Counted from the stretch's first letter, positions 1-61,860 are shown. The stretch is DNA of 64,000 nucleotides from Chiloscyllium plagiosum (GCF_004010195.1 NC_057718.1:10594474-10658473); one strand, 5' to 3'. Program-made: numbers and translations. Notes: generated by a model not told the origin, from the letters alone.

Positions 1-573
1 AGGTTTTTGTTGCAAACGTTTCGTCCCCTGACTAGGCGACATATCAGTGCTTGGGAGCCTCCTTCGAAGCGCTTCTTTGGTGTTTCCTCCGGTGTTTATA
101 GTGGTCTGTCCCTGCCGCTTCGGTTGTCAGTTTCAGCTGTCCGCTTTAGTGGTTGGTATATTGGGTCCAGGTCTATGTGTTTGTTGATGGAGTTTGTGGA
201 TGAATGCCATGCCTCTCGGAATTCATGAATTCGACTGGGACAACACTACTATCATAGGGCAAGCCAGACAGAGGACAGCCAGGGAATTCCTAGAGGCATG
301 GCATTCATCCACAAACTCCATCAACAAACACATCGACCTGGACCCAATATACCAACCACTACAGTGGACAGCTGAAACTGACAACCGGAAGCGGCAGGGA
401 CAGACCACTATAAACACCGGAGGAAACATCAAAGAAGCGCTTCGCAGGAGGCTCCCAAGCACTGATGATGTCGCCTAGCCAGGGGACGAAACGTTTGCAA
501 CAAAAACTTCCAGCTCGGCGAACAGAACCACAGCATTGAGCACCCGAGCTACAAATCTTCGCACAAACTTTGA
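1..573. mobile_element. Penelope-like element 3' end (GIY-YIG C-terminus plus pLTR) with an inverted upstream copy
   Basis: HEFDWDNTTIIGQARQRTAREFLEAWHSS...INKHIDLDPIY; 1-224 is the reverse complement of about 284-508. Confidence 0.85.
459..498 (+). ncRNA. Minimal hammerhead ribozyme motif (PLE family C)
   Basis: gca-CTGATGA-t-GTCgCCT/agcc/AGGgGAC-GAAA-CG-TT-tgc. Confidence 0.7.
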
Positions 574-895
574 GCCTTCAGTCACGTGAGTTATAGGAAT
601 GTGAATACCAACTAAGATACCACACCCCAATAATGGAAAGGAGAAAACCACAGTTCTTGCTGGTTGAGTGACCAAATCCCTCAAAAAGCATTGTTAATTA
701 AATCATCATTGTGGTGCATGAGTGTGAACCGCCTGCACCTGGAACTAACTTTCCAGAGTTTAGCTGAGTTAAAATGAATTATTAATTCCGTGATATAGGA
801 GTGCATTGACTGTAAATATAAATCATTCTTTAAACTGGATAAGTATATTCACATGTGGAATATAATATGAAAAATATTTCTTTATTTCTATTTAG

Positions 896-936
896 GCTTG
901 GAAGAGATGGTGCACACAAATTTTGTCTGCCTTAAG
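896..936 (+). CDS. NRBP1: NRBP1 internal coding exon (AWKRWCTQILSAL-S), 41 nt, phase 0/2
   Basis: tttag|GCTTGG...TTAAG|gtaagt; the peptide matches the NRBP1 pseudokinase domain as I recall it and splices in frame to 6317. Confidence 0.95.
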
Positions 937-1049
937 GTAAGTATCCAGGGAACTGAAATGGATCTGTTCTGGTGTTGCTTTCATTCTTTCTTCAGCCGGT
1001 CTTGCAATTTCTGAAGGCATTGTTACGTGTATGTGTGTGCACGTGTGTG

Positions 1050-1310
1050 TGTGTGTGGAGTTTGCACATTCTCCCCATGTCTGCATGGGGTTCCTCCCAC
1101 AATTCAAATATGTGCAGGTTAGGTGGATTGGCCATGCTAAATTGCCCATAGAGTCCAGGGATGTGGAGGTTTGTTGGATTTGCCATCCAAACTGCAGAGT
1201 TGCAAGGATAGAGTTAGGGGAGGTGGGTCTGGGTGGGATGCTTTTTGGAGGGGTGAGGACTTGATGGACTGAATGTCCTGCTTCTGCACTGTCGAGATTC
1301 TATGATTCTA
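1050..1310 (+). mobile_element. V/HE1-type SINE, 5' truncated, preceded by a (TG)n-like tract
   Basis: tgtgtggagtttgcacattctcccc...ggccatgctaaattgccc core shared with the copies at 32.4, 42.9 and 43.6 kb. Confidence 0.8.
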
Positions 1311-1394
1311 CAATTCCATCTTACCACCCCATGTTTGCTTTTGCGCAAATACTGAAGTGGACCAGCTAATGATTATGCAATTGCAAGAATAGGT

Positions 1395-1975
1395 CAGAGG
1401 ATGGGAATTCTGTGGTGAGTGACTCTCAAGCCTCTCCTCCATTTACAAAGCACAAGTTGAAGTGTGATGGAATGCTATCCACTTGACTGAATGAGAGCAA
1501 CTCCCAACAATAATCAAGAAGCCCAATGCCTTCCAAGACAAAGCTGCCCAGGGCACTTGACCAGCACCCATCCACCTCTTAGACTTTCACTCCCTCCGTA
1601 CACACACATAATGGTAGTCATGTGCACTATATGGAAGTACCTTCCCGACATTGCCTCAGCAGCACCTTCCAAGTCCAGCATCTTCCCAACCTGCACCATC
1701 AACCACTGAAGAAGGTCAAATACAGCAGACACATGGAAATATTGCTACTTGTCAGTTCCCCTTCAAGGTATACAACATCCTTACTTGAAACAATATTGCT
1801 ATTCCTTATCTGTTGCTGAACCTGAACTACCAAACAGCACAGTGGATGTATTTGTACCACACAAACTGTGATGGTTTAAGAAGGTTGTACCGTGGAATAT
1901 CTTCAAGGGGAATTGGGGTTGGACACGAAATGTTCTCCTTATCAGTGACACTCTAATCCGGTAAAATAGCTTTAA
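1395..1975 (+). mobile_element. Old CR1/L2-group LINE 3' fragment
   Basis: degenerate IYKAQV...EY...AWM-like RT C-terminus; the 3' tail resembles 24950-25012 and 37005-37070. Confidence 0.55.
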
Positions 1976-2258
1976 AAATGAAAGATTTGTCTATGTTCAA
2001 ATGCTACTGAAAAAGACATGATTGCATTATTATAATAACCTTTTGAAATGAATTTCAGATTTTTAAACATTATTCATGACAGTCTGAAGTTCTGTATTTT
2101 AAGGTTAACTAGGTTAATTTAGCTAGTTTAACCATCTAAAATTATCAATTGTCATACTAAAATTAGTTAATTTAAAGGTCATCTCTAATGAAGATGCAGA
2201 ACCTTTTTAGCAATTGGAGTTGAAGACTGTGTCTACTCAGACTTGACTAATATAAAGC

Positions 2259-3363
2259 AGAGTCAAGATTAGAGTGGTGCTGGAAAAGCACAGCAGCATC
2301 CAAGGAGGAGGAAAATCAATGTTTCGGGCAAAAGCCCTTCATCAGGAATGAGGCAGGGAGCCACTTGGGTGGAGAGATAATTGGGAGGGAGGTGGGGCTG
2401 CAGGGAAGGTAGTTAAGAGTGCAGTAGGTGGATGGAGGTGGGGATGAAGGTGGTAAGTTGGAGAGGAGGGGGGAGCAGATAGCTGGAAGGAAGATGGGCA
2501 GGTCATGAGGATTGTGCTGAGCTGGCAGGTTGGAACTGGAGTAAGGTGGGTGGGAGAGGAAATGAGGAAACTTGTGAAGTCCACATTGATGCCCTGGGGT
2601 TGAAGTGTTCCGAGGCGGAAGATGAGGCATTCTTCCTCCAGGCATCAGGTAGTGAGAGAGTGGCGGTGGAGGAGGCCCAGGACCTGCATGTCCTTGATAG
2701 TGGGAGAGGGAGTTGAAATATTTGGCCACGGGGCGGCGGGGTTGATTGGTACGGGTGTCCCGGAGATGTTCCCTAAAGCGCTCTGCGAGAAGGCGTCCAG
2801 TTTCCCAATGTAAAGGTGACCACCTTGGGAGCATTGGATACAATAAATGACACTTGAGCAAGTGCAGGTGAAACTTTGGATGTGAAAGGCTCCTTTGGGT
2901 CCTTGGAGGAGTTGAGGGGGAGGTGTGGGTGCAGGTTTTGCAATTCCTGTGGTAGCAGGGGAAGGTGCCATTGTATCCGTTGCTCCCGATGCCATCTCCT
3001 TTACACTGGGGAGACTGGACACCTTCTCACAGCGCCTTAGGGAACATCTCTGGGACGCCCTCACCAATCAACCCCACCACCCCTTGGCTGTACATTTCAA
3101 CACCCCCTACCACAAGTCCTGAGCCACCTTCACTGTCACTCCCTCACCACCCAGTGCCTGGAGGAAGAATGCCTTATCTTCTGCCATGGAATACTTCAAC
3201 CCCAAGGCATCAATGTGGACTTCACCACTTTACTCATTCCTTCCCCGCCCCGCCCCAACCTTACCCCAGTTCCAACCTTCCCCCAGTTCCAACCTTCCAG
3301 CTCAGCACCATCCTTATGACCTGTCCCACCTGCCAATCTTCCTTCCCAGCTATCCGCTCCACC
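2259..3363. mobile_element. Penelope-like GIY-YIG/pLTR fragments in inverted arrangement (minus 2259-2960, plus 2965-3363)
   Basis: FTCTCSSVIYCIQCSQGGHLYIG and RLLAERFREHLRD GIY-YIG motifs; HHR-like motif on the minus strand at about 2314-2350. Confidence 0.8.
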
Positions 3364-3853: not shown

Positions 3854-4069
3854 ACCCCTCTCCGGCCTATCACCCTCACCTTAACCTCCTTCCACCTATA
3901 GCATTCCCAACGCCCCCACCCCAAGTCCCTCCTCCCTACCTTTTATCTTAGCCCGCTTGGCACACCCTCCTCATTCGTGAAGAAAGGCTTATGCCCGAAA
4001 CGTCGATTCTCCTGCTCCTTTGATGCTGCCTGACCTGCTGTGCTTTTCCAGCAACACATTTTTCAGTTC
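3854..4069 (+). mobile_element. PLE family A pLTR fragment with a mutated HHR
   Basis: ttcgTGAAGAaaggcttatgcccGAAACGTCga; closely similar to 4523-4738. Confidence 0.8.
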
Positions 4070-4452
4070 AGATTTTTTATGCATTTTAAAATGTTTTATT
4101 ATCTTTGCATTACTATTCAAATTTATTTAGAAGGTCACATCCAGGATTAAATTAGTTAATGAAAATTTATTTTCATTACCTATAAAGTAGGAGTTTACTG
4201 GAATGATACCTGAACTTCAGGTATTAACTTATGAAAAGAGATTATATAAATTAGGCCTGTTTTCTCTTGGATTTAGAAGGGTAAGAGGTGATCTTGTGGA
4301 ATTTCTCAAAATACTAAGGCACATAGATAAAGACAAACTATTTCCATAGTTAGAATTAGGGGACACTGTCTGAGAATTAGGGTCAGACCATTCAGAAGAG
4401 ATGCTAGGAAACACTTCTGCAAACAGAAGTTTCAAAATCTATTTCACAAATG

Positions 4453-4770
4453 GGAGTCCCAACCCTCGGACTCAGCACTGCATTCTTGACCCGACTTCTT
4501 CTTCCCGACCTCTCTGCCCCCAACCCCTCTCCGGCCTATTACCCTCATCTTGACCTCCTTCCACCTATCGCATTCCCAACGCTCCACTCCCAAGTCCCTC
4601 CTCCCTACCTTTTATCTTAGCCTGCTTGGTACAACCTCCTTATTTCTGAAGAAGGGCTTATGCCCAAAACGTCGATTCTCCTACTCCTTGGATGCTGCCT
4701 GACCTGCTGCGCTTTTTCAGCAACACATTTTTCAGCTCTGATCTCCAGCATCTGCAGTCCTCACTTTCTC
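4453..4770 (+). mobile_element. PLE family A pLTR plus tail
   Basis: CTGAAGAagggcttatgcccaAAACGTC...gatctccagcatctgcagtcctcactttctc. Confidence 0.8.
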
Positions 4771-9290: not shown

Positions 9291-10655
9291 TTGACTCTGC
9301 TTGCACCTGGCAGTTCAACCCAAGGAGAATAATTTCTTACACCGCTTTCACCCTAAAGCAAGTCTGCTTGATCAAATTCAAAAACACTGTCGTGGCTTTG
9401 AGGGGGCATGGTTGGTGTTGGAAAGAAACTGAAATTTGTGTCAGCTGTTCCTTTTGAATCCCATCATTGTGCTTTAAAGAAGATAAAACTAATACAAACT
9501 ATGACTAAACATCTTTTTCTAAGTTATAACCTTGAATGTTTGGAAGTATTATTTAAATATAGCTTTTGTTGTATCTTTGCACCATCTTCATGCTCCAAAT
9601 ATAGGCATGGTCATTATTGTGCATTATTCTTTGAATTACTAGATCACTTGCCTTTCAAAGGAGCAGTAGAATCATAACTGTTTATTTGACTTTTTTTTTT
9701 ATTTTTGCGTGGTGCATGCATATACACATTGACATAAGAACGTGTTTTAAAGAATCTTCATTTGTTTAATGCATGTCGTCGTCAGACTTCAGTCTAATCA
9801 GTATGTTTGCCTCAGTATGTGAGGTGGTTTTCTCTCATCTTTTTCATTTGTGCATCATTACCGAGATTGTAACATTTATAACTATATCACTTAAATTGAG
9901 ACATGATGGTTTGATAAGTAGAAGATTCAATAAGTCATAGGAAATAAGGGCAGTGAAGGAGTAAGGAATTCTACAGTAGTGATAGCAAATACAGTGTCAA
10001 TGTGGATAGCAGTTATGAAGCTGTTTTTAAGTAAAAATGAACAGACTCAGTTTTGTATAGCAAAAGAGGCTGGAGGTGAGAATTTCATGTTCAGACAAGT
10101 TCATTGTTCAAGGATGCGTAACCTTGCTCTGCTTTTTTTTTCTTGACAAGTCTTCATAGCAAATGCTACTGCCAGAATTTACATCCTCATTTCTGTATTA
10201 TATTTAATTTGTGCCTACCAGCTTCAGATTGCTATCATAAGGAGACTTAATCTTGGTATCTCCCCGTCAAGACACGTTAAATCTTTTGTTTCAATAATCT
10301 AACCTCCTATTCTTCTATACTCCAATGATTGAGCACACTGAGCTTACAATCTTTCCTCCTAAGTCAACCCCTTCCACCCAGGAATCAAATTACTGAGCCT
10401 TCTGAACTTCCTCAAAAGCAAGTAGATTCTTCTTTTAGATTAGAAAGTCAGTCTTATATTGCACTATTGATGACAGTTTCACCAATGGCTTGGACATTTG
10501 CAGCAAGATTTCCTTACTTTTATACTCCATGCCTTTTGCAATAAAACCTGACCTTTTATTTGCCTTCCTAATTGCAACTAGTACCTCCATGTTGAAGTTG
10601 AAACTTTATTGCTGGAACAGCACAGCAGGTCAGGCAGCATCCAGGGAACTGGAGA

Positions 10656-10689
10656 TTCGACGTTTCGGGCACAGGCCCTTCTTCAGGAA
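10656..10689 (-). ncRNA. Minimal hammerhead motif, antisense arm
   Basis: minus strand reads TTC-CTGAAGA-A-GGGC/CTGT/GCCC-GAAA-CG-TC-GAA. Confidence 0.8.
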
Positions 10690-10700
10690 GGGCCTGAAGA

Positions 10701-10740
10701 AGATTCCTGAAGAAGGGCCTATGCCCGAAACGTCGAATCT
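10701..10740 (+). ncRNA. Intact minimal type I hammerhead motif
   Basis: AGATTC-CTGAAGA-A-GGGC/CTAT/GCCC-GAAA-CG-TC-GAATCT; 6-bp stem I; predicted cleavage after C10734. Confidence 0.85.
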
Positions 10741-10992
10741 CCTGTTCCCTGGATGCTGCCTGACCTGCTGTGCTGTTCCAGCAATAAAGTTTCAACTTTG
10801 ATCTCCAGCATCTGCAGACCTCACTTTCTCCTCCATGTTGAACTTCATGATTCATCTACAAAATCTGACATTGTTGTGCAACATTTTACAGTCTGTCTTC
10901 ATTTTAAATAGTATGTTGTTCTTTCATTATTTCTACCATAGTGATCAAGATCGCATTTTCCCATGTTGTTCTCATCTGCCAAATTTTTACAA

Positions 10993-11119
10993 CTTCACCT
11001 GATGAAGGAGCAGCGTTCCGAAAGCTTGTGATTTCAAGTAAACCTGTTGGACTATAACCTGGTGTCATGTGACTTCTAACTTTGTCCACCCTGGTCCAAC
11101 ACCAGCACCTCTGCATCAT
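10993..11119 (+). mobile_element. PLE family B pLTR end with an intact HHR at 10995-11031
   Basis: TCAC-CTGATGA-A-GGAGC/AGC/GTTCC-GAAA-GC-TT-GTGA; related copies at 17241 and 41477. Confidence 0.8.
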
Positions 11120-13181
11120 TTCATTCAGATCATTAATGTAGTCAACAATGAGGCTTCAGCACTGTAACACTCCTCTTGTTATAGTTTGTGAACCTCAAGA
11201 TGACCCATTTATCTGCTGTTGCGTGTGCAGCTGCAAAATTTGGACATTCCACATGCCAGTACTTTGACTTCCAGTTCCAGGAACTGGTACTGCACACAGA
11301 CCTCAGGTCTGTGCACTAGCAGGAATAGATAGGAAAGATAGGTTTCCTGTTGTTTAGTCCATCCTCTTTCCATGCTAAACTAATACCCCAGCAACATGAC
11401 CTCTTATCTTAGAAACCTTTTGTATGATAACTTTTTAATATACCACATCCCCTGGTATCCTTTTTATCTATCCTGCTTGTTAAGAACATGAATCAAACTG
11501 TTAAACGTGGTTTATCTTTTGTACAGTGTTAACAGGATGATTAGAAATTCATAAAATCATATCATAACTATAATGAAACATTTCAGCATTTGCAAATAAC
11601 AGGCTAACTGACCTATAGGTTCTACATTTACAATTTTATATTCTGCTGTGACACTTCCAGAAGCTTTGAAACTTTAGAACTTTACAACCAGTCTACCCCC
11701 TATCACTGCAGACATATATTTGAAGAATGTAGACTATCAAGTGTAGGAGACTTTTGGTCTTTATTCCATTTTAGTTTTCTTGGTGCATTTTTCTCTGATG
11801 TGTTTTAAGTTCTTCTTTATCTTTTGATTTTCCTACTATTCTTGGGGAAAGACAGAAGACATTCTGTGTAGACAGATGCAAAATTCTTGTTTGAAGTCTG
11901 GAGTATTTACTTAGTCATAGTCATGCAACATAAAAGAGGCCCTTTGGCCCATCATTGATCAATCTACACTAACAACTTTGCAGCACGTGGCCCATAGCCT
12001 TCAATGTTATGACCTTCCAAGTGCTTTTCCATATATTTATTTACGTTTTTGAGATTTCCTGCCTGTATTGCCCTCCCAGGCAGTGTGTTCCACATCTCCC
12101 CCCCCCCCCTCAGTCAAAAAGATTTCCTCCAATTTCCTCTAAGCCGCCTTCCCTTTACCCTAAAATTATGCTCCTTAATCACCACATTAATGTATCATGT
12201 TGCCTCCAGGGATCTGAGGGTAAGCATTCCAAAATCTGAGTATTCCTTTAAGCTTCCTAATGTACTGCCATTCATCAAGTAATCCATTGCCTTGTTACTT
12301 CTTCCAAAGTTCACCACCTCATGCTTATCAGGGTTGAATTGCTTGCTCCTGATCTGCCCATCTCACAAACGTCTATTTTTATTGACGTAGCTCCAACAAC
12401 GCAAGCATGGACTCTCTCCAGGACAAAGCAGCTTGCTTAATTGACGCCACGTCCACAGACAGCTACTCCCTCCACCACAAGATGCACTGCAGAAATTTAC
12501 CAAAGCTTCATAGACAACACCTTCCAAACCCATGAACATTTCCAACTAGAAAGATAAATGCAGCCAATACATGGGAACACCACCTTTTGCAAGATCCCCT
12601 CCAAGCCACTCACCACCCTGATTTGGAAATATAATGTCAGTACTTAACTGTTTGAGGTCACAGGGCCATAGAGTCATACAGCACAGAAACATGCCTTTCA
12701 ACCCAACTTGTCCATGCAGACCAGGTTTCCTACACTGAACTACTCCTATTTGCCTGCATTTGGCCCATATTCCCCTCAACTCTTCTTATCATATGCCTGT
12801 CCAAATGTCTTTCAAACGTTGCAATTGTGTAAGCCTCCACCACTTCCACTAGAATCTTGTTTCATAAACACTATCTCATGTGAAAAAGTTGCCCCTCAGG
12901 TCCCTTTTTTAAAATCTTTTCCCCTCTCACCTTAAACCTATGCCCTCTAGTTTTGGACTTTTCTACTTTTGCGGAAAAGACCATCTCAGTTTACCTTATC
13001 TATGCACCTCCATGATTTTTTAAGTTCACCCCTCAGCCTCCTATGCTCCAGGGAAAAAAAAGTCTTAGCCTATCCAGCCTTTTTAACTGAAACCTTCCAG
13101 TCTCACTAATATCCCTGTAAATCTTCACTCCCTTTCCAGTTTAATAACATCATTCCTCTAGCAGGGCAACAAGCATAGTAC

Positions 13182-13909
13182 AGTCACAAAGCTGGTCCCT
13201 TTGTTTTCTAAAAATTGTTCCTTTTCTTAAGGATACTTTGTTCTTGTCCTTTTTTCAAAGGGGTCATAAACAGCTCCGGTTTAGATTAGACTGGTTTGGT
13301 ACAGAGATTAAGGGGTTTTGAGAGGCCTTTTTGATTATATGTAAATAGATGAGACGTCAGGCCAAAGTGGTCATGTTTTAGAAGTGACCTGTATAAAGAA
13401 GGGCTCGTGCCCGAAACGTCGATTTTCCTGCTCCTTGGATGCTGCCTGACCTGCTGCGCTTTTCCAGCAACACATTTTCACCTCTGATCTCCAACATCTG
13501 CAGTCCTCACTTTCTCAGCGGAGTAGTTCAGTCCAGAACTAGTTAGAAATTCAACTATGTGGAAACAGGTTCTCTCTCTCTCTCCTTCTGCCCTTCTAAC
13601 TTCAACCTGTTGCATTGTTACTGTTTTTTTTAAGGGGGTTTGCTTATTGGGACTGTTGTGTATATATTCAGAACTGCATAATTAAGTCTAAGTTGGATAG
13701 ACTGAGTTCTGTGGGGATTCTTTATTCTGTCCTTTGTGTTTCATTGTATATGTGTGAATAAATTTTTGTCTGTTCTAAAACCTGGTAGTTTACCTGGAGT
13801 AAGTTGGCTACGTTTATGTTCACTATATACTTAGCGAAACAAATTGCCAACTTATGGTTTGGGCTGCCTGCTTAAGAATGTTTTGAGAGGTCTGGCTTAG
13901 TCAGTAACA
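13182..13909 (+). mobile_element. Probable solo LTR (Gypsy-like) inside CR1
   Basis: ends aGTCAC...GTAACA; flanks gtac/gtat; TATA-like gtataaag at 13391; AATAAA at about 13757; CR1 resumes after 13909. Confidence 0.55.
13398..13516 (+). mobile_element. PLE family A pLTR end plus tail inserted in the LTR
   Basis: gaagggctcgtgcccGAAACGTCga...ctcactttctc. Confidence 0.85.
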
Positions 13910-17240: not shown

Positions 17241-17443
17241 ATGATGTGGAGGTGCTGGTGTTGGACTAGAGTGTTCAAAGTCAGAATCCACAGGACACCA
17301 GGTTATAGTCCAACAGATTTATTTGAAATTGCAAGCTTTCCCTCGTCAAGTGGACTTCACCTGATGAAGGAGCAATGCTCCAAAAGCTTGTGATTTCAAA
17401 TAAATCTGTTGAACTATAACCTGGTGTCCTGTGAATTTGACTT
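17241..17443. mobile_element. Fold-back PLE family B mini-element
   Basis: long minus arm with tail at 17241-17353; short plus arm at 17355-17443 with an HHR whose GAAA is mutated to AAAA. Confidence 0.8.
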
Positions 17444-18849: not shown

Positions 18850-21800
18850 ATGGAGTCACGCAGCATGAAACAGACCCATTGGTCCAAATCGTCCGTACCA
18901 ACCAAGTTTCCCAAACTAAACTGGTCCCACTTGGCTGCAATTGATCCATATCCCTGTAAACCTTTCCTATTCATGTATCTATCCAAATGTCTTTTAAATG
19001 TTGTAACAAAGAACAAAGAAAATTACAGCACAGGAACAGACCTTTCAGTCCTCAAAGCCTGTGCCAATCCAGACCATTTATCTAAACCTGTAGCTTATTT
19101 TCCAAGAATCTGTATCCTTTGGCTCCCTGCCCATTCATGTATCATGTACTCAATACCTTGTCCGATGACTGAAAGCATGCCGTATGCCTTGTTGACCACT
19201 CTGTCGATCTGCCTTGCCACCTTCAGGGTACAATGGACCTAAACACTCAAATCCCTCTGTACATCAAATTTCCCCAGGGCTTTTCTATTTACCATATAAT
19301 TTGCTATTGAATTGGATCTTCTAAAATGCGTCTACTCTGTCTCCTATTGCTCAGCTAGTTCTTTATCCATCTAGCTAATACACCCTAGACCCCATGCAAC
19401 TTCACTTTCTCCATCAGCCTACCATGGGGAACCTTATCAAAAGCCTTTGTGAACTCCATGTATATGACATCTACAGCCCTTCCCTCATCAATCAATTTTT
19501 TCACTTCCTCAAAGAATTCTATTAAGGTGGTAAGACGTGACCTTCCTGGCACAAAACCATGTTTCCTATCACTGATAAGCCCATTTTCTCCCAAATGTAA
19601 ATAGATTTTATCCTTCAGTATCTTCTCCAGCAGCTTCCCTACCACAGATGTCAGGCCCACCAGTCTATATTATCTGGATTATCCCTGCTGCCCTTCTGAA
19701 CGAAGAGGACAATATTAGCAATTCTGCAGCCCTCTGGGATCTCTTTCATGTTCAAGTATGCTGCAAAGATATCTGTTAAGGCCCCAGCTCTTTCCTGTCT
19801 CGCTTCCCTTAGTAACCTGGGATAGGCCCCATCTGGACCTGGAGATTTGTCCACCTTGATGCCTTTTGGAATACCCAATGCTTCCTCCCTTCTTAAGCCG
19901 ACTTGATCTAGAGTAATCAAACATCTATTCCTAACTTCAGCATCCATCGTGTCCCACTCCTTGGTGAATACTGAACCAAAGTACTTATGTAAGAATCTCA
20001 TCCGTTATCTCTGACTCTACGTATAACTTCCCTCCTTTATCCTTGAGTGGGCCTGTCCTTTCTCTGGTTACTTTCTATTACTCTCTCGCTCCTTATATAT
20101 GAATAAAAAGCTTTGGGATTTTCCTTAACCCTGTTTGCTAAAGATATTTCATGACCCCTTTAAGCACTCTTAATTCCTCATTTAAGATTGGTCCTACTTT
20201 CCCGATATTCTTCCAAAGCTTTGTCTGTTTTCAGTTACCTGGACCTTTTTATGTATGCTTCTTTTTTCTTCTTAGTCTCACAATTTGCATCTACCACTTT
20301 CTCTGGCAGTTCATTTTTACATACGAACCACCGTCTGGAGGAGGTTGCCCCTTGAGTCCCTTTTAAATCTTTTTCCTCTCACCTTAAAATATGCCCTCTA
20401 GTTTGAACTCCCCTACACTAGGGAAAAGACATTTGCTATTCTCTTTATCTAGGCCCTTCATGATCTTATAAATCTCTATAAGATCTTCGCTCAACCTCCA
20501 ATGCTTTAGTTAAATTAGTCTCATCTTATCTCTTATAATTCTAACCCTCTCCAATTTAATAATATCCTTCCTTAGCCCAGTGACCAGAACTGTAGACTGT
20601 ATTCCAATAATGGCTTCACCAATGTCCTGTACAACCTCAACATGATGTCCCAACTGCAATGGTCTGAGCAATGAAGGCAAGCATGTTTTGCGAGTTTTAA
20701 GATTTGTAGCTCAGGTTGAGGTTCTGGATGTACGTTTGCTCGCTGAGCGGGAATGTTCATTTCCAGTCGTTTCGTCACCTAACTAGGTAATATCTTCAGT
20801 GAGCCTCCGGGCGAAGCACTGTTGATAATTCCTGCTTTCTATTTATATGTTTGGGTTTCTTTAGGTTGGTGACACCATTTCCTGTGGCGATGCCATTTCC
20901 TGTTCTTTCTTGGGGGGTGGTAGATGGGGTCTAACTCTGTGTTTGACGATAGAGTTCCAGTTGGAATGCCTTGCTTCTAGGAATTCTCATGCATGTCTCT
21001 GTTTCGCTCATCCTAGGATGGATGTGTTGTCCCAGTCAAAGTGGTGTCCTTCCTTATCTGCATGTAAGGATACTAGTGAGAGAGGGTCATGTCATTTTGT
21101 GGCTAGTTGATGTTCATGTATCCTGGTGGCTAGTTTTCTGCTTGTTTGTCCAATGTAGTGTTTGTCACAGTCCTTGCATGGTATTTTGTAAATGACATTA
21201 GTTATGCTAGTTGTCTGTATAGAATCTTTCAAGTTCATTAGCTGCTGTTTTAGTGTGTTTGTGGGCAACCGTGATGCCAAAGAGTCTGAGTAGTCTGGCA
21301 GTCATTTTAGCATGCTAAATACCTTAATTACCCTGTCTACATGTGACACAATTTTCAAAGAGCTATGTACCTGAACCCCTTAGATCTCTCTGTTAAACAA
21401 CACTTCCCAGGGGCCTACTATTAACTGTATAAGTCTTGCCCTTGTTCGTTTTACCAAGATGTTAAACTCCATCTGGCACATCTCAGCCCATTGGCCCAAT
21501 TGATCAAGATCTCTTTGTAATATTAGATAACCACCTTCACGTCCACTGTAGCACCAAGTTTGGTATTATCCGCACACTTACTAACTATGCTTTCTATATT
21601 CTCATCTGAATTGTTTATATAAATGACGGTGCACCTAGTACCGATCCCGGTGGAACACAGCTGTTACAGGCCTATGATCCAAAAAGCAACCTTCCACCTC
21701 CACCCTTTGTCTCTTACTATTAAACAGTTTTTTGCATCTAATTGGCAAGCTCTGAGTCTCTTGTGATCTAACTTTCCTGATCAGTGTATGATTTGGAATC

Positions 21801-23365: not shown

Positions 23366-23559
23366 GAGAAAGTGAGGTCTGCAGATGCTGGAGATCAAAG
23401 TTGAAACTTTATTGCTGGAACAGCACAGCAGGTCAGGCAGCATCCAGGGAACAGGAGATTCGACGTTTCGGGCACAGGCCGAAGAAGGGCCCGAAACGTC
23501 GAATCTCCTGTTCCCTGGATGCTGCCTGACCTGTGCTGTTCCAGCAATAAAGTTTCAAC
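23366..23559. mobile_element. Fold-back PLE family A mini-element, 16-bp TSD
   Basis: TSD tctgttgtagcaatag at 23350-23365 and 23560-23575; nearly identical to 10597-10829 but in the opposite orientation. Confidence 0.9.
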
Positions 23560-30684: not shown

Positions 30685-31150
30685 AAATGAAATACTTCAG
30701 ATATTGGAGATCTGAAATAAAACCAAAATGCAAAAAAAAAACCCATCCAACAAGAACCTGAAGAGGAGTTATAATGGACTCAAACACTAACTCTGTTTCT
30801 TGCTCCACAGATGTTGCCAGATGTGTTGTATTTCTCCAGTATTTTGTTTTTATTTCTTCATAATTAGATTTTGTTTTAAAAAGTCATTCTCTAACTGTGT
30901 GTATATTGTTGGTACGGGTGTACATCACAAAAAGAAAAGCATTACATAAATAAAAACCAAAATTACTGGATAAGCTCAGTAGTTCTGGCAGCATCTATGG
31001 AGAGAAAGCAGAGTTAGCATTTTGGGTCCAGAGACCCTTCCTCAGAATCTGAAATAAAACACAAAAACACAAAATTCTGGAAATCCTCAACACATCTGAC
31101 TGCATGTGTGGAAAGAGAAGCATGGTGAATTTTGGGGTAAAGGCACTCTG
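30685..31150. mobile_element. Cluster of old PLE family D pLTR fragments
   Basis: ctccacagatgttgccaga; ggcagcatctatggagagaaagcagagttagcattttgggtccagagacccttcctcagaa (HHR on the minus strand). Confidence 0.6.
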
Positions 31151-32171: not shown

Positions 32172-32365
32172 AAACGAAGAACTGCAGATCCGAGAGATCT
32201 CTCTGGCATCTGTGGGGGTGGTGGGAAGCAGATTTGATGTTTTGAGTCCAGTGACTTCTTCAGAAAGTCACCAGACTCAAAACGTTAACTCTGCTTTGTT
32301 CCCACAGATGCTGCCAGACTTGCTGAGTTTCTACAGCCTTTTGTTGTGTGTTTTTGTTACAGAAT
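32172..32365. mobile_element. Fold-back PLE family D element
   Basis: gttttgagtccagtgactt versus aagtcaccagactcaaaac; ctggcatctgtggg versus cccacagatgctgccag. Confidence 0.7.
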
Positions 32366-41443: not shown

Positions 41444-41476
41444 GTAAGTATGATACTATTGTGCCGGTTCAATGAC

Positions 41477-41596
41477 GTAGTGGTGCTAATGCTGGACTAG
41501 GGTAGACAAAGTTTAAAAATCACAACAGGTTATAGTCCAACAGGTTTATTTGGAAGTACTAGCTTTCAGAGCACTAGCCCTTCGTCAGGTACCTCA
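41477..41596 (-). mobile_element. PLE family B pLTR end, 10-bp TSD
   Basis: gttcaatgac at 41467-41476 and 41597-41606; minus strand reads tacCTGACGAa...GAAAGCTAgta. Confidence 0.75.
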
Positions 41597-41853
41597 GTTC
41601 AATGACAAAAGTCAAAATGCTTTTTGAACGCATTCAGACAAAGTCAATGAATCAACTTGCACTGGCTTCTTGTCTTGCTCCTGCACCACTTCTTTTGGTG
41701 CTCCCTGAAGATCTATCCTTAGCTGTCTTCTGATTTTATTTACGTTATCTACATGTCACAATCATCTGAAAACACAGCCTCAAGCCAAGTTATACCTTAC
41801 TACTGCCTCTGTACACTCTCAAATGTCTTTAAATTGCGTAACCTCTTGTCTGA

Positions 41854-41944
41854 GCTGAAAATGTGTTGCTGGAAAAGCGCAGCAGGTCAGGCAGCATCCA
41901 AGGAACAGGAGAATCAACGTTTTGGGCATAAGCCCTTCTTCAGG
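41854..41944 (-). mobile_element. 91-bp PLE family A single arm, 13-bp TSD
   Basis: acctcttgtctga at 41841-41853 and 41945-41957. Confidence 0.88.
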
Positions 41945-42099
41945 ACCTCTTGTCTGATACCTGGTGCAGGATAAACAGAAATGTCTTCCAAATTAATACT
42001 GGGAAGATGAAAGTTATTATCTTCTCTCCGTGCCATAAATCCTGTTTCAAGGTGCACTACCTTCATTCCTTTCCATTGGCATCTTTGAGGCTGGGCCAG

Positions 42100-46972: not shown

Positions 46973-46984
46973 CATGAGGAACAA

Positions 46985-52100: not shown

Positions 52101-55100
52101 TCCATCCTTTAGCCAAGTTTCTTTAATAGCTATGATATCCTAATCCTGTGTTCCAAACATGCCCTGAGTTTATCAGCCTTACCTGTGAGCCCCTTGCATT
52201 GAAATAAGTGCAATTTAATTCTTAAGAGTTATTTGTTCTCTTCCCCTCATGAGTCTTGTTTGATTTGTCTCCTGAACCTTACACATGCTTCCCTTTTCTT
52301 TTCAAATTAACTTTTAACGTGTCTCATCGGTTCCTGAATCTTGCCATTCTTGCCTTTCAAACTCTCATATATCTGATAGTGGTCTTGAATGACAGTCTTA
52401 ACCTTACCCCTATCCATAAGTAACTTGAAATTTATGAAATTATGATTACTGTTCCCAAAATGCTTCCTCAGTGAAACTTTGATCACCTGGTCAGGCTCAT
52501 TCCCCAATGCAAGGTTTAATACAGCCTATTCCCTAGTTGGACTACCTACATTTTGTTTCAAGAATACCTCCTGGATGCACCAAACAAATTCTGCCCTATC
52601 TAAGCCTTTGGCACTAAGGGAGTTCCAGTGAATTTGGAGAAATTAAAATCACACACTAACACAACCCTGTTGTTTTCACACCTTTCCACGAGCTGCTTCT
52701 ACATCTGTTCCTGCAATTCCTGTTGGCTATTGGGTGGCCAAAATATAACCCAATTATCGTCATTATACTTTTTTATTCCTAAATTCTATCTAAATTTCCT
52801 TGCTGGATGTGTCCTCCAAGATGTCCTCTTTTAGTACAGCTGTGACATTCTCCTTAATCAGTAATACAACTCCTTCACCCCTTTTCTGTCAAGCCTGAAA
52901 TATCTAAATCCTGGAACATTTAATTGCCCCTCCAGGCTTTCTCTCCACAAAGTTTCTGTAATAGCTACCACATTGTACACGCATACAATGATGCAAGCTA
53001 TAAGCTCACCTGCCTTGTCTGTTAGTCATTGCATTAAAATAAATACACTTCAGACTGCTAGTCCTGCTGTGTTAATTAGCCTTGTCATGGTTGTTCTTCC
53101 TACAAAACTGACTTAATTTTGCCCCTCTTTTTTTCTTTAAATACTCCACATGCTGAGCTGCTCTGGTTCCCACCGTCCTCACCCCACCATGCTGGTTTAA
53201 ACTGTCCTGAGTGGTTCAGGTTGTAAGCTTGCTTACTGAGCTGCAGGGTTTGTTTTCCGACATTTCGTCACCATGCTAGGTAACGACATCAGTGAGCCTC
53301 CGGTGAAGCGCTGGTGTTCTGTCCTGCTTTCTATTTGTGTCTTGATCGGTTAAGGTGGGTGATATCATTTCCGGTTCTTTTTCTCAGAGGTTGGTAAATG
53401 GGATCCAAATCAATGTGTTTATTGATGGAGTTCCGGTTTGAATGCCAGGCCTATAGGAATTCCCATGCGTGTCTCTGTTTAGCCTGCCCTAGGATGGATG
53501 TGTTGTCCCAGTCAAAGTGGTGTCCTCCTTCATCTGTGTGTGAGGATACTCTTGATAGCAAGTCATATCTTTTGGTGACTAGTTGGTGTTGGTGTATCCT
53601 GGTGGCTAGTTTTCTGCCCGATGTAGTGTTTATTACAGTCCTTGCAGGGTATTTTGTAAATGACATTGATTTTGCTGGTTGTTGGTATAAGGTCCTTTAG
53701 GTTCATCAGTTGCTCTTTCAGTGTATTGGTAGGTTTGTGGTTTATCATGATGCCGAGAGGTCGGAATAGTCTGGTAGTCATCTCCAAGATGTATTTTGAT
53801 GTTCCTGAAAGACAACAGACTCCCAGAAGAAACCCAGCAGGCCATCAGACAGACAGTTGCATCAACACTAAGCAGGAAAAAGGAAGGGAGCACCCTCAAC
53901 ACACAGGAAAGTCAAGTCCTGCAAGGGCCGAAAACATTGCAGACAAAGGGCGCATGACTGTCATCCTGAACAGAACACAGTACATTGAAAAGGCAAACTC
54001 ACTGCTCGCAGATGCCAACACTTACCAAGAGATGGCGATAAACCTGACTCCACAGCCAGAAAACCGTGCCACAGCTTTATTGAAGAAGTTTCATAAATCA
54101 GGCAAAATTAACAAGAAAGATCTCCAAAAAACGAAACCTGATGGATCCAACACACTTCGATTCTACACATTACCTAAGATACATAAACCAGAGGCACCCC
54201 TTAGACCTATAGTCTCACTCCCAGCCACAGTGATCTACAGACTAGCAAAGGAACGCCACCGAAAACTAAAATACCTAGTAGAAGACTCATGCTACTCCAT
54301 CCACACCACTCAAGAATTCCTGAACATCATCAAAGACATCGAGATAGAGAATGAAGTAATGGTCTCCTTTGATGTAACAGCCCTATTCACATCAATTAAC
54401 ACCAGCCTGGCCAAAGAAACACTGGCTGCACTACTAGACGAACCAAGGACACTAACACGAGACAGCACCAACATCATCGGCAAGGACAACATCCTCAATC
54501 TGTGACTCACTACCCAATTCACCTTCAATAACAAAACCTACAAAGAAATCAACGGAACACCTTTGGGATCACCAATATCAGACTTCTTATGGGCAGTAAT
54601 GCAGAGACTAGAGAGAAAAACAGCCCTCCCCACGATCTACCCCCAACCTTTGGGTCCACCAATTTGTCATTACAAAATGGAACAAATTAGAGGAAACCTA
54701 CAACATCATTAATAACGTCCTTACTGGTATAATGTTCACGAAAGAGGAAGAGAACAACAACAGACTCCCCTTCCTAGATGTCACAGTAGAACGAAAAGCC
54801 AATGGAGAGCTGCAGACCAGCGTCTACAGGAAACAACATGCACAGACCAGATACTCAACTACAAAAGAAATCATCCCAACACGCACAAATGGAGCTGTAT
54901 CAGAACATTATTTAAAAGTGCCACAACACACTGCAGCACCAGGAATTAACAAATGGCAGAAGAAAAATATTAATACAGCAAATTCAAGAACAATGGGTAT
55001 CTAATAAATACAATCCTCTGATTCTTAAACTACAAACCCAAACAAGCAGTCACAACATGCCCAGAAACTCTAGCCACACTATCAGACACATCTTGGAGTT

Positions 55101-56030
55101 GACTACCAGACTACCCTAACCCGTTGGCATCATGGTAGCCCACAAACCTACCAACATACTGAAACAGCAACTGATGAACCGAAAGGACCCCATACCAACA
55201 ACCAGCAAAATGAATGCCATTTACAAAATATCCTGCAAGGACTGTAACAAACACTACCTCGGACAGTCAGGCAGAAATCTAGCCACCAGGATACACTAAT
55301 ACCAACTAGCCACCAAAAGATATGACTCGCTATCACTAGTATCCTCAGACGAAGAGAGATACCACTTCGACTGGGACAACACATCCACCCTAGGACAGGC
55401 TAAACAGAGACACATGCGAATTCCTAGAGACCTGGCTTTCAAACCGGAACTCCATCAATAAACACATCGATTTGGACCCTATTTACCAATCTCTGAGAAA
55501 AAGAACCAGAAATCATGTCACCCACCTTAAAAGACCAAGACCCACAAATCGAAAGCGGGACAGAACACCAGCACTTCACCGCAGGCTCACTGCTGATGCT
55601 ACCTAGCATGGTGACGAAATGTTTGAAAACAAACCTTGCAGCTCAGCGAGCAAACTTACAACCTGCACCTCAACCTGAGCTACAAATCTTCTCAAAAAAT
55701 CGCAATCTCCTGACTGGCATTAACAAATCTCTTTGCAAGGATATTGGTAACCCTCTAGTTTAAATGCAACCCATTCTTCTTGTACTGACCCCATCTGCCC
55801 TGAAAGTGTTCCCAATGATTCATATATCTGAATCCCTCCCTTGTGCACCAGCTCTTTAGCCATGCATTCAGCAATATCTTCCTATTTCTGGTCTCGCTGG
55901 TATGTGGCACAGGGAATAACCCCAGATTACAACCCTACAAGTCCTGCTTTTCAGCTTCCGATCGAACTCCTCATTTATTTTTGCAGGACCTCATGTCTCT
56001 TGCTGCCTATGTCATTAGTACTATTAGACA
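49160..56030 (-). mobile_element. Long nested CR1 array (RT, APE, ORF1) interrupted by a Penelope element
   Basis: KKDRGAKRRGGVALLIKE (APE); HLLEYCVQLWSP and RRLRSDLVEVYKI (RT C-terminus). Confidence 0.85.
53215..55705 (+). mobile_element. Penelope-like retroelement (family C): decayed RT plus GIY-YIG plus pLTR, with an inverted 5' arm
   Basis: DKGRMTVILN, FYTLPKIHKPEAPLRPIVS, VSFDVTALFTSI, GTPLGSPIS, FTKEEENNNRLPFLDVTV...VYRK, IYKISCKDCNKHYLGQ; 53215-53792 mirrors about 55088-55668. Confidence 0.93.
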
Positions 56031-58657: not shown

Positions 58658-58708
58658 ATTCTCCCAGTTTCCTGCACTGGAGTTAGATAAGTTTTTAGAG
58701 GATGTGAG
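58658..58708 (+). CDS. NRBP1: NRBP1 exon (FSQFPALELDKFLEDV-R), 51 nt
   Basis: ccttacag|ATTC...GTGAG|gtaaga. Confidence 0.96.
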
Positions 58709-58769
58709 GTAAGAATTCCACACTGGGGCTGGTAAATATCATTCCTCCTTGATTCTTGTGTCTATTAGA

Positions 58770-59210
58770 TTAAGGAGCAGAAGTAAGCCATTTTAATCTA
58801 TTGAGTCTACTTTGGCATTCAATGAGATCATGGATAATCTTTTAATCCCCAAATTCAATTTCCTGCCTTTTCCCCATAACTCTTAAAAGCAGATCTATCT
58901 CAGCCTTGAATATACTTAATGACCCAGTCGTAACAGCTTTGTGCGGTGAAGAATTCTCCAGATTTGTAACCCTATGAAAGAAGAAATTCCTCCATGTATC
59001 TGAAATTTGTGACCTTTTACTCTGGCCCTATGCTTTTCCACTAGGGGGGAGAAAAAAGTTCCATATCTACACTGTCAAGTCCTCTAACAATCTTGTATGT
59101 TTAAATAAGATCACCCCTCGTCGTCCTCCTCTTCCAACAAGTATAGGCCCAATCTACTCAATCTTTCCTCATAAGACAGTCCCTCCATACTTGGTATCAG
59201 CTTAGTAATT
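58770..59210 (-). mobile_element. CR1 3' fragment in the short intron between exons 58708 and 59332
   Basis: aggagcagaagtaagcca tail; ctcataagacagtccctccatacttggtatcag (IPSMEGLSYE on minus). Confidence 0.75.
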
Positions 59211-59331
59211 CTGGTTTTATCTCTCTTTTGAGATAATGTGTAGATCAGCACCAGTTATTTTTCTAAACGTTTAGGGTTTGTTTTCTATATATGCTATTCT
59301 ATACTCGTGATTGTCCATCTTTAATTTGAAG

Positions 59332-59467
59332 GAATGGTATTTATCCTTTGACTGCATTTGGAATGCCCATGCCTCAGCAGCCACAGCAAGAGACTGTGAC
59401 ATCACCCATTATCCCACCATCTGTGAAAACCCCAACACCAGAACCTGCAGAGCTGGAGACAAGAAAG
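59332..59467 (+). CDS. NRBP1: NRBP1 exon ([45 protein letters not shown]), 136 nt
   Basis: tttgaag|GAATGG...AGAAAG|gtaaag; AAG acceptor; the coding frame differs from the ORF-track frame at 59311. Confidence 0.96.
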
Positions 59468-59739
59468 GTAAAGTTTTACAGTCAATGTTATTTCTCTGCT
59501 CATCCACTTATCTTATAACTTGTAATTGTTTATCCAGTGATTAAAATGTTCACACAGAATCTGGTTTTCTGAGAAGCGGCAGTAGGCTGTTTTGAGTCAC
59601 TGTATAGCCCCTGTAATGAAGGTTTTCTTATGGAAGTACTAGACTAGGAATTCAAGGCTATTAAACCATTAATAATGAATAACACAGTGAATACAGTTAG
59701 TAGCTTTGTCAAAATAAATTGGGCTAATGTAATCTCCAC

Positions 59740-59766
59740 TATACATAGTATACATAGTATACATAG
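59740..59766. repeat. (TATACATAG)x3 tandem repeat
   Basis: three exact 9-mers. Confidence 0.9.
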
Positions 59767-60109
59767 AATCCTGTCACCTGCTCCATTGTATTGTATGGTT
59801 ACAAGTATTACAATCTCAGTGCACTGGTGAAGGAGAGCTGTGATAGCCCAATTTGTTTTTACCTGAGTTTTTCAAAGGCTGTAGGGATTTGGTGTCCTAC
59901 AAGCAGTGCTTTCTTTGTATTTGGTATGTTGCCCAGCCACAGAAGTAGAATGGGTTAGAACCTTGCAGCCCCAGTGAGCCAGCATGACTGATTTATTTAT
60001 GCACTTATAGTTTAAGTTACAAGTTATTTTAAATGAAGGATCCACCTGCTGTGCTGAAAGTAATGCAAGGATTGACTGACTTTTTTTTTCTTATTGTGTG
60101 TCTTGACAG

Positions 60110-60163
60110 GTTGTTCAGATGCACTGCAATATTGAGCCAGTTGATGAAGGAGCCAAGCATCAT
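60110..60163 (+). CDS. NRBP1: NRBP1 exon (VVQMHCNIEPVDEGAKHH), 54 nt; the gene continues beyond the window
   Basis: branch-like ctgac at about 60076, a polyT tract, gacag|GTTGTT...CATCAT|gtaagt. Confidence 0.96.
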
Positions 60164-60955
60164 GTAAGTTCTTTGCTTTCCATTAAAGCAATGCCGATTA
60201 GTTTCTTGTGCATGTTTGTTCTCCACTGTTTGAGCTGTTTTCCCCATATTCAAACTGTGAATGCTAATGTTTGTGTTGAATGAATGTATGCTTGTGAGAG
60301 AGTTCAGCATGTAAAAAATAGTTCAGTTATTTGAAAACATTCACAGTAAATACTTTTTTAAAAACTTTATTGTGTTTGTATATGTTATCTGCTACAGATC
60401 AATTAAGTAATATTTTATTCACATTTTTCTATATGACAACATAAATAAAACTTGCAGTATTTCTGTTCCTCATTAACCCATTACACAGAAGAAATGAAGT
60501 TGGAGGAATGAATTTGTGGCTCAAAGACCAGTGGGAGAAGTGGGTACACTGGCACTATTACTGGGAAAGTGGGATTTACTCTATGCAGGGCAGGTATTTT
60601 GGTCATAACTAGTGAATTAAAGAGGGTTTTAAACTAATTGGTGGGAACAAGGGATCAAATTTGGCAAGATGTGGTAGATGAAGAGTTTCTACGTGGCACA
60701 AAAAGTTAGTAAGATGTTAAATGAAAAACCATTCATGCCCGGAAGGGATGGAGAATACAATACCAAGAGTGAATTGATAGATGGATGAGAAATTACAAAA
60801 ACAATAAAAAGCAAAACTAAAAGTTCTATATATTAATGCATGCAACAATTGGAACAAAACACATGATTTGATAAAACAATTTGTAACATATAATTCAAAT
60901 TGGTAGCCATTACAGAGACAGGGCTAAAAGGTGAAGTAGGTTGGAACCTGAATAG

Positions 60956-61085
60956 GAGAAAGTGAGGACTGCAGATGCTGGAGATCAGAGTTGAGTGTGT
61001 GGTGCTGGAAAAGCACAGCTGGCCAGGCAGCTCCTTGGATGCTGTCTAACCTGCTGTGCTTTTCCAGCACCACAATCTTGACACT
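60956..61085. mobile_element. Fold-back PLE family A mini-element lacking the HHR, 12-bp TSD
   Basis: gaacctgaatag at 60944-60955 and 61086-61097; gtggtgctggaaaagcacagc versus gctgtgcttttccagcaccac. Confidence 0.88.
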
Positions 61086-61639
61086 GAACCTGAATAGTCA
61101 AGGATCTCAAAATCCAAGAGAATGTGAAGGCCAGCTCCCTTAATTAATGAAGAAATGAGCACTATGGAGAGGGGTGATTTTAAGTTCAGGAAACCAGGAG
61201 CTAGAAGGCAAGAAGTTACTTTACTAATAATCACACAATGTAATAAAGTATAAACAAACAAATAATGAGAGCTTATCCTGCTGTTTTATCAATTTATATA
61301 TATGATGTATATGCAGAAGTACCCGATAAGTTCATTGTATGTTTTCAGGTGTATTCCTTAACATAGTACATTTTGGAATTAACCAAAGAGCAGGATATTT
61401 TGGTTTGTAAAATGAGATAAGATTGGTCAATGACCTCATAGTGAAGGCACTCTTTTTGTTAGCATCGATGATAATATGGAACTTTACATCGTTTGAGGGA
61501 GAGATTAATGGTTCCAAAACTAGTATTTTGACTGCCCTCATTCTGCACTGGCACCTTAATGATTCTCTGGCTTGGATGAAGGGATCAAAGGTACGGTTGC
61601 AATTTTTGCTGATGGTACAACGATAGATCATAAGTACAA

Positions 61640-61860
61640 CTGAAAGAATTGAGGATGCTGTAAATTAGAAACAAAAAGAGAAGTTGATGGGAAAGCTCAG
61701 CAGGTCTGGCAGCATCTGTGCAGAGAAATCAAAGTTAACAATTTTGGTCCTGTGACCCTTCCTCAGAACATGTTTCATAGTTCTGAGGAAGGGTCACTGG
61801 ACCCAAAAACTTTGATTTCTTTTCACAGATGCTGCCAGACCTGCTGAATTTTTTCAGTTC
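61640..61860. mobile_element. Fold-back PLE family D element with paired HHR remnants
   Basis: perfect 18-bp (61752-61769/61780-61797) and 23-bp (61698-61720/61824-61846) inverted matches; gttCTGAGGAaGGGTCactgGACCCaAAA. Confidence 0.8.

Follow-up and report, generated by a model that had tools for sequence, protein, structure and literature searches.

Metazoan Penelope-like elements (PLEs) carry minimal type-I hammerhead ribozyme motifs (min-HHRs) with a long helix II and a short helix I, in which an unpaired base lies between positions 9 and 10.1, the G10.1-C11.1 pair is conserved, and palindromic positions 15.2-16.2 replace helix III (Cervera and De la Peña, 2014, PMC4209133). Here, we describe such motifs in a stretch of 64,000 nucleotides of the Chiloscyllium plagiosum genome (GCF_004010195.1, NC_057718.1:10594474-10658473), called the window throughout, and in loci sampled elsewhere in the same 3.56-Gb genome (designated L001, L002, etc.). 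There is every reason to expect, though short of certainty, that these are min-HHRs situated near the 3' ends of PLEs which bear an endonuclease and belong to at least four related lineages.

According to the 2014 study, a single genome may contain many consensus families "full of covariations"; the copies are mostly single or on opposite strands, coming from truncated elements, with the opposite-strand pairs 100-700 bp apart, and activity in vitro was low and confined to dimeric constructs. About 9,000 min-HHRs were counted in Xenopus and about 4,000 in the coelacanth, with a descriptor different from ours. Hammerheads are reported to be universal in canonical PLEs (PMC4209133; PMC8557442), inverted 5'-truncated partners are described as a PLE hallmark (PMC8557442), and the dimer model of the minimal hammerhead is summarised in a 2019 review (PMC6765202). 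For a PLE from Anolis, cleavage and extension of both DNA strands in vitro are described, and its hammerhead is reported to cut only when the element protein is present, with no RNA-seq reads ending at the cut site among the data presented there (PMC11167929). Finally, up to 120,000 copies of the related retrozymes are reported for the much larger axolotl genome, likewise with a descriptor other than ours (NAR 2020, PMC7229834), and animal retrozymes have been argued to derive from the terminal repeats (pLTRs) of PLEs (bioRxiv 2026, 10.64898/2026.07.22.740005).

The C. plagiosum modules show all sequence features of the min-HHR class (PMC4209133). They differ from those described in that their stem sequences represent new families and their copy number is far higher, about 220,000 in 3.56 Gb by simple descriptors, although the descriptors are not the same; in addition, the 5'-repeat copy was not found in the two long copies examined here. 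The class has been known since 2014; the novelty lies in the families themselves and in how very numerous they are in this genome, which extends the scale rather than the concept. A search for papers on Penelope hammerheads in cartilaginous fishes yielded none, the only match being a review in which the word "shark" describes the appearance of the motif.

Hammerhead modules of the window

Self-BLAST with seeds around each site, followed by alignment, defined four families (A, B, C, and D), each consisting of a hammerhead-like module and a conserved tail of about 70-110 nt. A per-site table compiled from BLAST, alignment, and a covariance model lists 25 recognisable modules of the form CUGANGA–stem II–GAAA–palindrome: five are fully intact, two are changed in helix III only, and the rest are mutated or 5'-truncated; the CUGANGA and GAAA boxes are both intact in 7/25. 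An earlier reading made from the DNA alone (hereafter, the sequence-only reading) had listed positions of the motif, and every one of them holds the motif or a decayed copy. The modules intact throughout (CUGANGA, GAAA, ACGU or AGCU, and H) are 10651-10694(-), 10699-10742(+), 10991-11035(+), 41552-41596(-), and 454-503(+). In two modules with an intact core, helix III is changed to ACAU (2310-2353(-)) or ACGA (20758-20807(-)). The sequence-only reading was also correct in that many copies are disabled by a CpG-type change of GAAA to AAAA: this transition, G12>A, is present in seven modules (4638+, 41908-, 17353+, 31008-, 32228-, 61775+, and 61729-) and, as an eighth case, in 32255+, which has lost its 5' half as well. 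Other core lesions occur in four modules (C3>G in 3969+, a 1-nt deletion in 7-55(-), A9>U in 53251-, and A6>C in 55582+), and four more are 5'-truncated within the motif (13381+, 23454-, 23472+, and 17296-; five if 32255+ is counted). The remaining two are 30750+, which has undergone heavy decay, and the doubtful 22690+.

The bare CTGANGA..GAAA pattern is weakly enriched in the window (16 matches versus 7.2 expected, a number reached by one of 100 shuffles), and the real evidence comes from the repeat families and from pairing. The sequence-only reading had suggested a covariance model and a genome-wide count (for the count, see Abundance). With filters off, the model, built from the intact copies of families A, C, and D, gave 18 window matches at E<0.01 and 22 at E<=1. 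Family B is poorly captured by it, with 10.9 bits in the window and, among 24 B loci, a single site at 12.7 bits; BLAST and alignment served to place the four B sites of the window.

Fold and covariation

Pairing was counted in two ways. First, the positions were fixed on the invariant core, which involves no alignment choice, in 84 distinct core-intact modules of all four families from the window and the genomic loci. Second, a pair counter was applied to 28 sequences of families A, C, and D aligned with MAFFT. A four-family MAFFT alignment placed family B one column out of register and was rejected; hence, family B enters only the anchored count. The genomic loci of families A, B, and D were picked by patterns that fix stem II, while helix I was never part of any search pattern.

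Each module comprises the hammerhead core, a single unpaired base following A9, a 4-7-bp helix II closed by G10.1-C11.1, helix I of 3-4 bp, and a 4-nt palindrome (ACGU or AGCU) replacing helix III. Among the 84 modules, A9 is followed by A (75 modules), U (8), or C (one); the 10.1-11.1 pair is G-C in 70 and G-U in 10; and the palindrome is ACGU in 53 and AGCU in 31, with no ACCU or AGGU although the parse permitted both. Helix II is paired in 92-99% of the modules at positions 1-5, compared to 10-58% at positions 3-4 when the partner is shifted, and all of G-C, A-U, C-G, and U-A are represented at positions 3 and 4. Helix I is paired in 85, 87, and 76% at positions 1-3, with three to five pair types, and partners shifted by one or two bases reduce this to 20-48%.

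In the 28-sequence alignment, the invariant columns are C, U, G, A, G, A, and GAAA. Paired cells make up 88.4% of 242, compared to 62.0% after shuffling (0/500 shuffles reach the observed value) and 24-44% with slid partners; the covariation score is 0.631, compared to 0.214 and 0.02-0.16, respectively; and both sides change in six of ten pairs. Thus stems I and II differ between families yet remain complementary, and minimal hammerheads with covarying stems, as the sequence-only reading had it, are supported by both counts. Its account of stem I stands as far as pairs vary and remain complementary; the 6-bp helix AGATTC/GAATCT which it gave is restricted to the copy at 10699+, the pairing at the level of family A being ATTC/GAAT, weaker in the GATTCT subfamily.

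Further stem II variants (GAGUC/GACUC and GAGC/GCUC) were seen in genomic loci (L019:861-907, L044:1236-1282, L047:1685-1728, and L066:1456-1501), so the genome has more hammerhead families or subfamilies than the four of the window.

Association with Penelope-like elements

Family C is continuous upstream into remnants of reverse transcriptase (RT)-like and GIY-YIG-like frames in three window copies. The Pfam GIY-YIG match on the fragment 21092-21301 scores 19.6 bits, below the cut-off, and no Pfam domain reached the threshold on the family C fragments of 53660..55705; the motifs LPKIHK..RPIVS and IYKISCKDCNKHY are read in the frame remnants of the latter copy. Longer frames are found at two family A loci. 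In L092, a frame of 893 codons matches RVT_1 (33 bits, above the cut-off of 29.6) and GIY-YIG (21.2 bits, cut-off 22.6, E 3.5e-4), with the RT followed by a C-terminal GIY-YIG domain in one reading frame as in a canonical endonuclease-bearing PLE, and a family A module lies about 160 nt past its stop. L007 is a family A inverted pair with 771-bp arms that are 96.9% identical; here, a frame whose GIY-YIG match exceeds the cut-off (22.9 bits) has its stop about 155 nt upstream of the module. Sense-strand endonuclease remnants, 34-55% identical to that of family A, are present upstream of some copies of families B (L020+ and L016-) and D (L043+ and L050-). The DNA of families A and D aligns at about 70% along 85-90 nt, with E values as low as 2e-8, and the tail motif GATGCTGCCWGACCTGCTG is common to both. 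The modules lie about 95-140 nt from the element 3' end.

The homologous RT/GIY-YIG frames, together with the tail shared by A and D, make the four families related PLE lineages as opposed to independent acquisitions: the modules are homologous parts of one retroelement class, diverging under constraint. Their identity as PLE minimal hammerheads is, in our opinion, very probable. The sequence-only reading had spoken of unrelated repeat families that converged independently on the same minimal hammerhead. BLAST indeed finds no DNA similarity outside the module between B or C and the other families, and the A/C/D model scores family B at only about 11-13 bits. However, A and D align beyond the module; homologous GIY-YIG frames precede families A and C and some copies of B and D, so that all four are represented; the position near the 3' end, the truncation pattern, and the head-to-head pairing are common to all; and canonical PLEs are reported to have hammerheads universally (PMC4209133; PMC8557442). 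Independent convergence is thus highly improbable, and this part of the claim has to be abandoned in favor of common descent.

A comparable element is Poseidon PAc of Anolis (Mob DNA 2024, PMC11167929). Like the elements described here, PAc is a vertebrate endonuclease PLE with a hammerhead shortly upstream of the copy end, and in both cases RNA-seq reads that end at the cut site are absent from the data described. PAc differs in that its reading frame starts inside the hammerhead. A similar start at the ATG of loop II was considered for C. plagiosum and rejected: the frame is open through the tail, but has no similarity to the N-terminus of the L092 frame. The N-terminal part of this long frame contains at least four tandem 120-bp (40-residue) repeats with 97-99% identity (L092:3101-3616). 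Long "open frames" in L091 were discarded as produced by runs of N.

Truncation, head-to-head pairs, and 5' ends

The length of the sequence kept upstream of the core ranges continuously from 2 to 676 nt among genomic copies, which is a pattern of 5' truncation. BLAST and alignment revealed eight head-to-head inverted pairs in the window. Among 65 sampled genomic copies, a head-to-head partner is present in 27, a tail-to-tail partner in 7, a direct upstream partner in 7, and a direct downstream partner in 5; unpaired single copies are in the majority (38/65). Such heavy 5' truncation with an adjacent inverted truncated partner is likewise found in canonical PLEs as they are described in PMC8557442. 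The first 100 family A places include nine close pairs, all in the (-,+) order, and in eight of the nine both arms have the same loop variant, which argues that each pair formed in one event.

The palindromic structure of the pairs, and their sub-threshold matches to Rfam microRNA (miRNA) hairpins, would also be in line with foldback DNA transposons, or those of the miniature inverted-repeat transposable element (MITE) type, resembling a hammerhead by chance. We give this almost no credence, as the arms vary from less than 100 to more than 770 nt and run into RT and endonuclease frames, unpaired copies prevail, and the conservation of the core and the covariation of the stems are far beyond chance.

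Similarities are also seen with non-LTR (long terminal repeat) retrozymes, which have type-I hammerheads, co-occur with PLEs, and are proposed to derive from PLE terminal repeats (PMC7229834; bioRxiv, 10.64898/2026.07.22.740005). Retrozymes are described there as 150-450-bp units that are arrayed head to tail, have canonical loop-loop contacts, and give rise to circular RNAs; the copies described here, in contrast, are dispersed or inverted, not tandem, and lack those loops. No head-to-tail arrays, the retrozyme hallmark, were evident among the 65 copies, as direct partners within 800 nt (7 and 5 of 65) are at the level of the tail-to-tail background (7/65). Similarly, Tandem Repeats Finder (TRF) detected no hammerhead-bearing tandem array in the window. 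The sole same-strand neighbours there are the family A copies 3854-4073 and 4523-4742, a 220-nt direct repeat (90%) whose members are 669 bp apart and each retain 115 nt upstream of the motif.

Copies in L001-L068 and in the window (families A, B, and D) tend to begin a few bases before CUGANGA, their 5' ends being concentrated at the 5' strand of helix I instead of evenly distributed. The upstream remainder is at most 22 nt in 24/70 copies (BLAST extent), and the junction lies within 26 nt of CUGANGA in 20 of 27 head-to-head pairs. Homology is lost within 12 nt, with a mode of 4 nt, in 14 of 20 family A copies according to a cruder majority comparison, which is unreliable where subfamilies differ, especially in D. 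As the motif is cut on its 3' side, self-cleavage does not explain this clustering; it would be explained by a transcript that starts, or is processed in some other way, at the 5' strand of helix I.

One explanation, compatible with the assignment of the modules to PLEs, is that the hammerhead and tail form a non-autonomous unit of about 100-130 nt, similar to a short interspersed element (SINE) or a retrozyme, which PLE enzymes copy from its own short RNA. In addition to the clustered 5' ends, this could be suggested by the AATAAA in the family A tail, with about 60 RNA reads passing into poly(A) just after it, and by the argued derivation of retrozymes from PLE pLTRs (bioRxiv, 10.64898/2026.07.22.740005). 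On the other hand, no promoter was identified for the unit, head-to-tail arrays are absent from the 65 copies and from the window, many copies are continuous into the reading frame, and the clustering measure is crude for divergent subfamilies, as noted above. We regard such a unit as a possibility, although rather an unlikely one.

It is a still bolder and quite doubtful proposal that the main product of retrotransposition is a unit of about 100-130 nt extending exactly from helix I to the tail and usually inserted as a head-to-head palindrome in a single event. If it were true, it would imply a short RNA, copied from both cleaved strands, with its 5' end defined at the hammerhead edge by an undescribed start or processing step. 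The genome would then have one of the densest hammerhead complements in the compared literature (about 62 core-intact motifs per Mb) and tens of thousands of near-perfect hairpins, which could feed small-RNA pathways, and host transcripts could be cut when one RNA holds two sense copies.

Abundance in the genome and Rfam annotation

Pattern searches were run over the 3.56-Gb genome with reversed patterns as the control. The intact core was found 65,074 times for family A, 18,234 times for family B, and 244 times for family D, with no match of the reversed pattern in any of the three cases. Family-agnostic descriptors yielded 168,415 core-intact motifs of the ACGU type (control 1,637) and 52,077 of the AGCU type (control 277), i.e., 220,492 motifs versus 1,914 controls, or about 62 per Mb and one per 16 kb. 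The density is high, and we do not claim it as a record. The G12>A form of family A occurs 4,301 times; since the intact form outnumbers it among otherwise perfect A cores, family A is young. Family D is old and mostly decayed. A search with the family A endonuclease yielded 186,614 candidates at first look. Of these, 150 were scored; they show 90-100% identity to the query, and internal stops are absent from 146. Such abundance of young copies makes this genome well suited for testing whether PLE ribozymes cut in vivo.

Rfam detected no hammerhead family in the whole window, either at the gathering score or at E<=10, nor any at E<=10 in the interval 10640-11050 (411 nt), which contains three intact copies. 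The hammerhead families of Rfam include Hammerhead_1, Hammerhead_3, HH9, HH10, and Hammerhead_II. They share the catalytic core with the modules, which lack the stable helix III and the tertiary contacts that those models expect. An Rfam-based annotation would therefore report zero hammerheads here despite some 220,000 core-intact motifs, and the expectation of the sequence-only reading, a very large and largely unannotated complement, was justified.

The head-to-head pairs form long near-perfect hairpins, and the intervals 10656-10737, 60995-61079, 61736-61814, and 32208-32309 match Rfam miRNA models below the threshold: MIR6136 with 51.7 bits (gathering score 99), and also MIR6146, mir-284, mir-6715, and mir-3202. 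Resembling miRNA precursors, these hairpins can contaminate miRNA predictions; they are a likely source of false miRNA calls and possibly a source of real small RNAs.

RNA evidence and cleavage

Reads of two poly-A single-cell runs labelled as the same species, X10 and X11, were mapped on one family A arm. X11 gave no mapped reads, whereas about 2% of X10 gave 805 reads on both strands. Their depth is about 8-20 in the reading frame and increases to 100-290 across the module and tail, tracking the genomic excess of truncated copies. About 60 X10 reads run into poly(A) a few bases past the AATAAA of the family A tail (L007:2454-2466; window 10783-10788), and inserted family A copies may supply polyadenylation sites to whatever transcribes them.

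Several observations count against PLE hammerheads that function as described. First, helix I has just 3-4 bp, and in GAUUCU, the commonest A subfamily, it has a U-U mismatch at position 3. Second, the monomer has folds of unremarkable stability (z-scores between -0.3 and -1.9), and helices I and II appear together in some minimum-energy structures only. Third, pairing of stem II within families A, B, and D is partly built in by the selection of loci; the differences between families and helix I are not affected by this. Fourth, in families B and D, the endonuclease remnants upstream are only presumably continuous with the hammerheads. Fifth, the motif of this class is located in the pLTRs flanking the RT-GIY-YIG frame on either side; here, it is seen on the 3' side, and no 5'-repeat (pLTR) hammerhead was found upstream of the long frames in L092 and L093, the two examined, of which one is directly preceded by an assembly gap. 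Moreover, no tandem full-length element was found among the candidates L079, which has no direct-repeat structure, and L080, where a 334-bp direct repeat surrounds unrelated sequence; both were rejected. Finally, X10 contains no qualifying molecule start or end: the depth rises smoothly across the predicted cut (L007 2406/2407), and the strands are similar, a pattern that fits passive transcription of dead copies or carry-over of DNA. However, a poly-A library is ill-suited to the detection of ribozyme ends and most copies are dead monomers; therefore, the RNA data are a weak argument against bulk cleavage and are silent on source copies.

The missing read ends at the predicted cut in X10 are also what could be expected if the module were an RNA structure kept for protein binding or for positioning the initiation of reverse transcription, without cutting in vivo, the core serving as a binding surface or being a passenger. 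Observations reported for other PLEs point in the same direction: catalytic mutants of the Anolis element leave insertion in vitro unaffected and RNA-seq ends at the cut are lacking in the data described (PMC11167929), and PLE clades without hammerheads are said to proliferate well (PMC8557442). Yet the 11 unpaired bases of the catalytic core are the most conserved ones across lineages with endonucleases only 30-55% identical, which is hard to explain by helices alone, and cutting was seen with the protein present in the Anolis study (PMC11167929). A purely structural role thus seems unlikely to us. As for self-cleavage in vivo by source copies, suggested by analogy with the described PLE hammerheads, our judgement is evenly divided.

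A mechanism may be proposed on the basis of published work on the PLE hammerhead class. Helix III would not be formed by a single copy, and for this reason the cut after H17 would need either a dimer paired through the palindrome or the element's own protein. Cleavage after H17 would serve in processing of the element transcript. Selection would be restricted to a few source copies, the approximately 10^5 inserted copies being decaying by-products, and decay would proceed most rapidly at the CpG containing G12. Head-to-head pairs would arise if reverse transcription were primed on the two DNA strands after their cleavage, as observed in vitro for an Anolis PLE. For the dimer model of the minimal hammerhead, the four lineages constitute a natural series of mutants.

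Distribution of copies in the window

Family A includes a head-to-head pair. Its left half, 10595..10694(-), comprises hammerhead and tail with the fully intact module 10651-10694 (52.2 bits with the covariance model); the right half, 10699..10830(+), has the fully intact module 10699-10742, with the cut predicted after C10734 (52.3 bits), and the AATAAA of its tail is at 10783-10788(+). The copy 2278..2353(-) belongs to the subfamily with CUGAUGA and a UUUU loop; the core of its module, 2310-2353, is intact, and the helix III sequence ACAU reflects CpG decay. The copies 3854..4073(+), with 115 nt upstream of the motif and C3>G in module 3969-4012, and 4523..4770(+), with G12>A in module 4638-4681, are followed by 13381..13516(+), which is 5'-truncated within CUGANGA. 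Both arms of the pair 23366..23563 are truncated inside stem II, 41853..41951(-) has G12>A in module 41908-41951, and the head-to-head pair 60956..61069 consists of tails only, with no hammerhead left and weak matches to Rfam miRNA models.

Family B is represented by 10991..11130(+), whose intact module 10991-11035 has AGCU in place of helix III and UCAC/GUGA as helix I; by 41471..41596(-), where the core of module 41552-41596 is intact and helix I is GUAC/GUAC, compensatory relative to the copy at 10991; and by the head-to-head pair 17241..17443, with G12>A in module 17353-17397 of the + arm and the - arm truncated through stem II.

The family C head-to-head pair 3..620 includes a palindrome at 3-507 (89.8%), with the intact module 454-503(+) and module 7-55(-) carrying a 1-nt deletion in the core. 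In 20699..21301(-), the GIY-YIG remnant (21092-21301) is followed by module 20758-20807, with an intact core and ACGA at helix III, and then by the tail. A long head-to-head pair has as its left half the arm 53213..53844(-), with an endonuclease remnant and module 53251-53300 (A9>U); in the arm 53660..55705(+), remnants of RT-like and GIY-YIG-like frames precede module 55582-55631 (A6>C) and the tail.

Family D copies occupy 30758..31054, with G12>A in module 31008-31053(-) and an additional decayed + copy at 30758-30840. Both arms are decayed in the head-to-head pair 32228..32337, and in the pair 61692..61880 modules 61729-61774(-) and 61775-61815(+) both have G12>A.

Other features

Fragments of a reverse transcriptase of the long interspersed element (LINE) type are present in the window at 19385-20004(-) and 57213-58058(-), the second with an RVT_1 match of 19.1 bits, below the cut-off, and similar fragments recur in genomic loci. 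A run of N at about 57205-57660 falls within a LINE-like frame; the whole window contains 920 N. A weak Rfam match to ZEB2_AS1_3 at 49396-49496(+), with 30.4 bits versus a gathering score of 55, lies in a C-rich stretch and is probably compositional.

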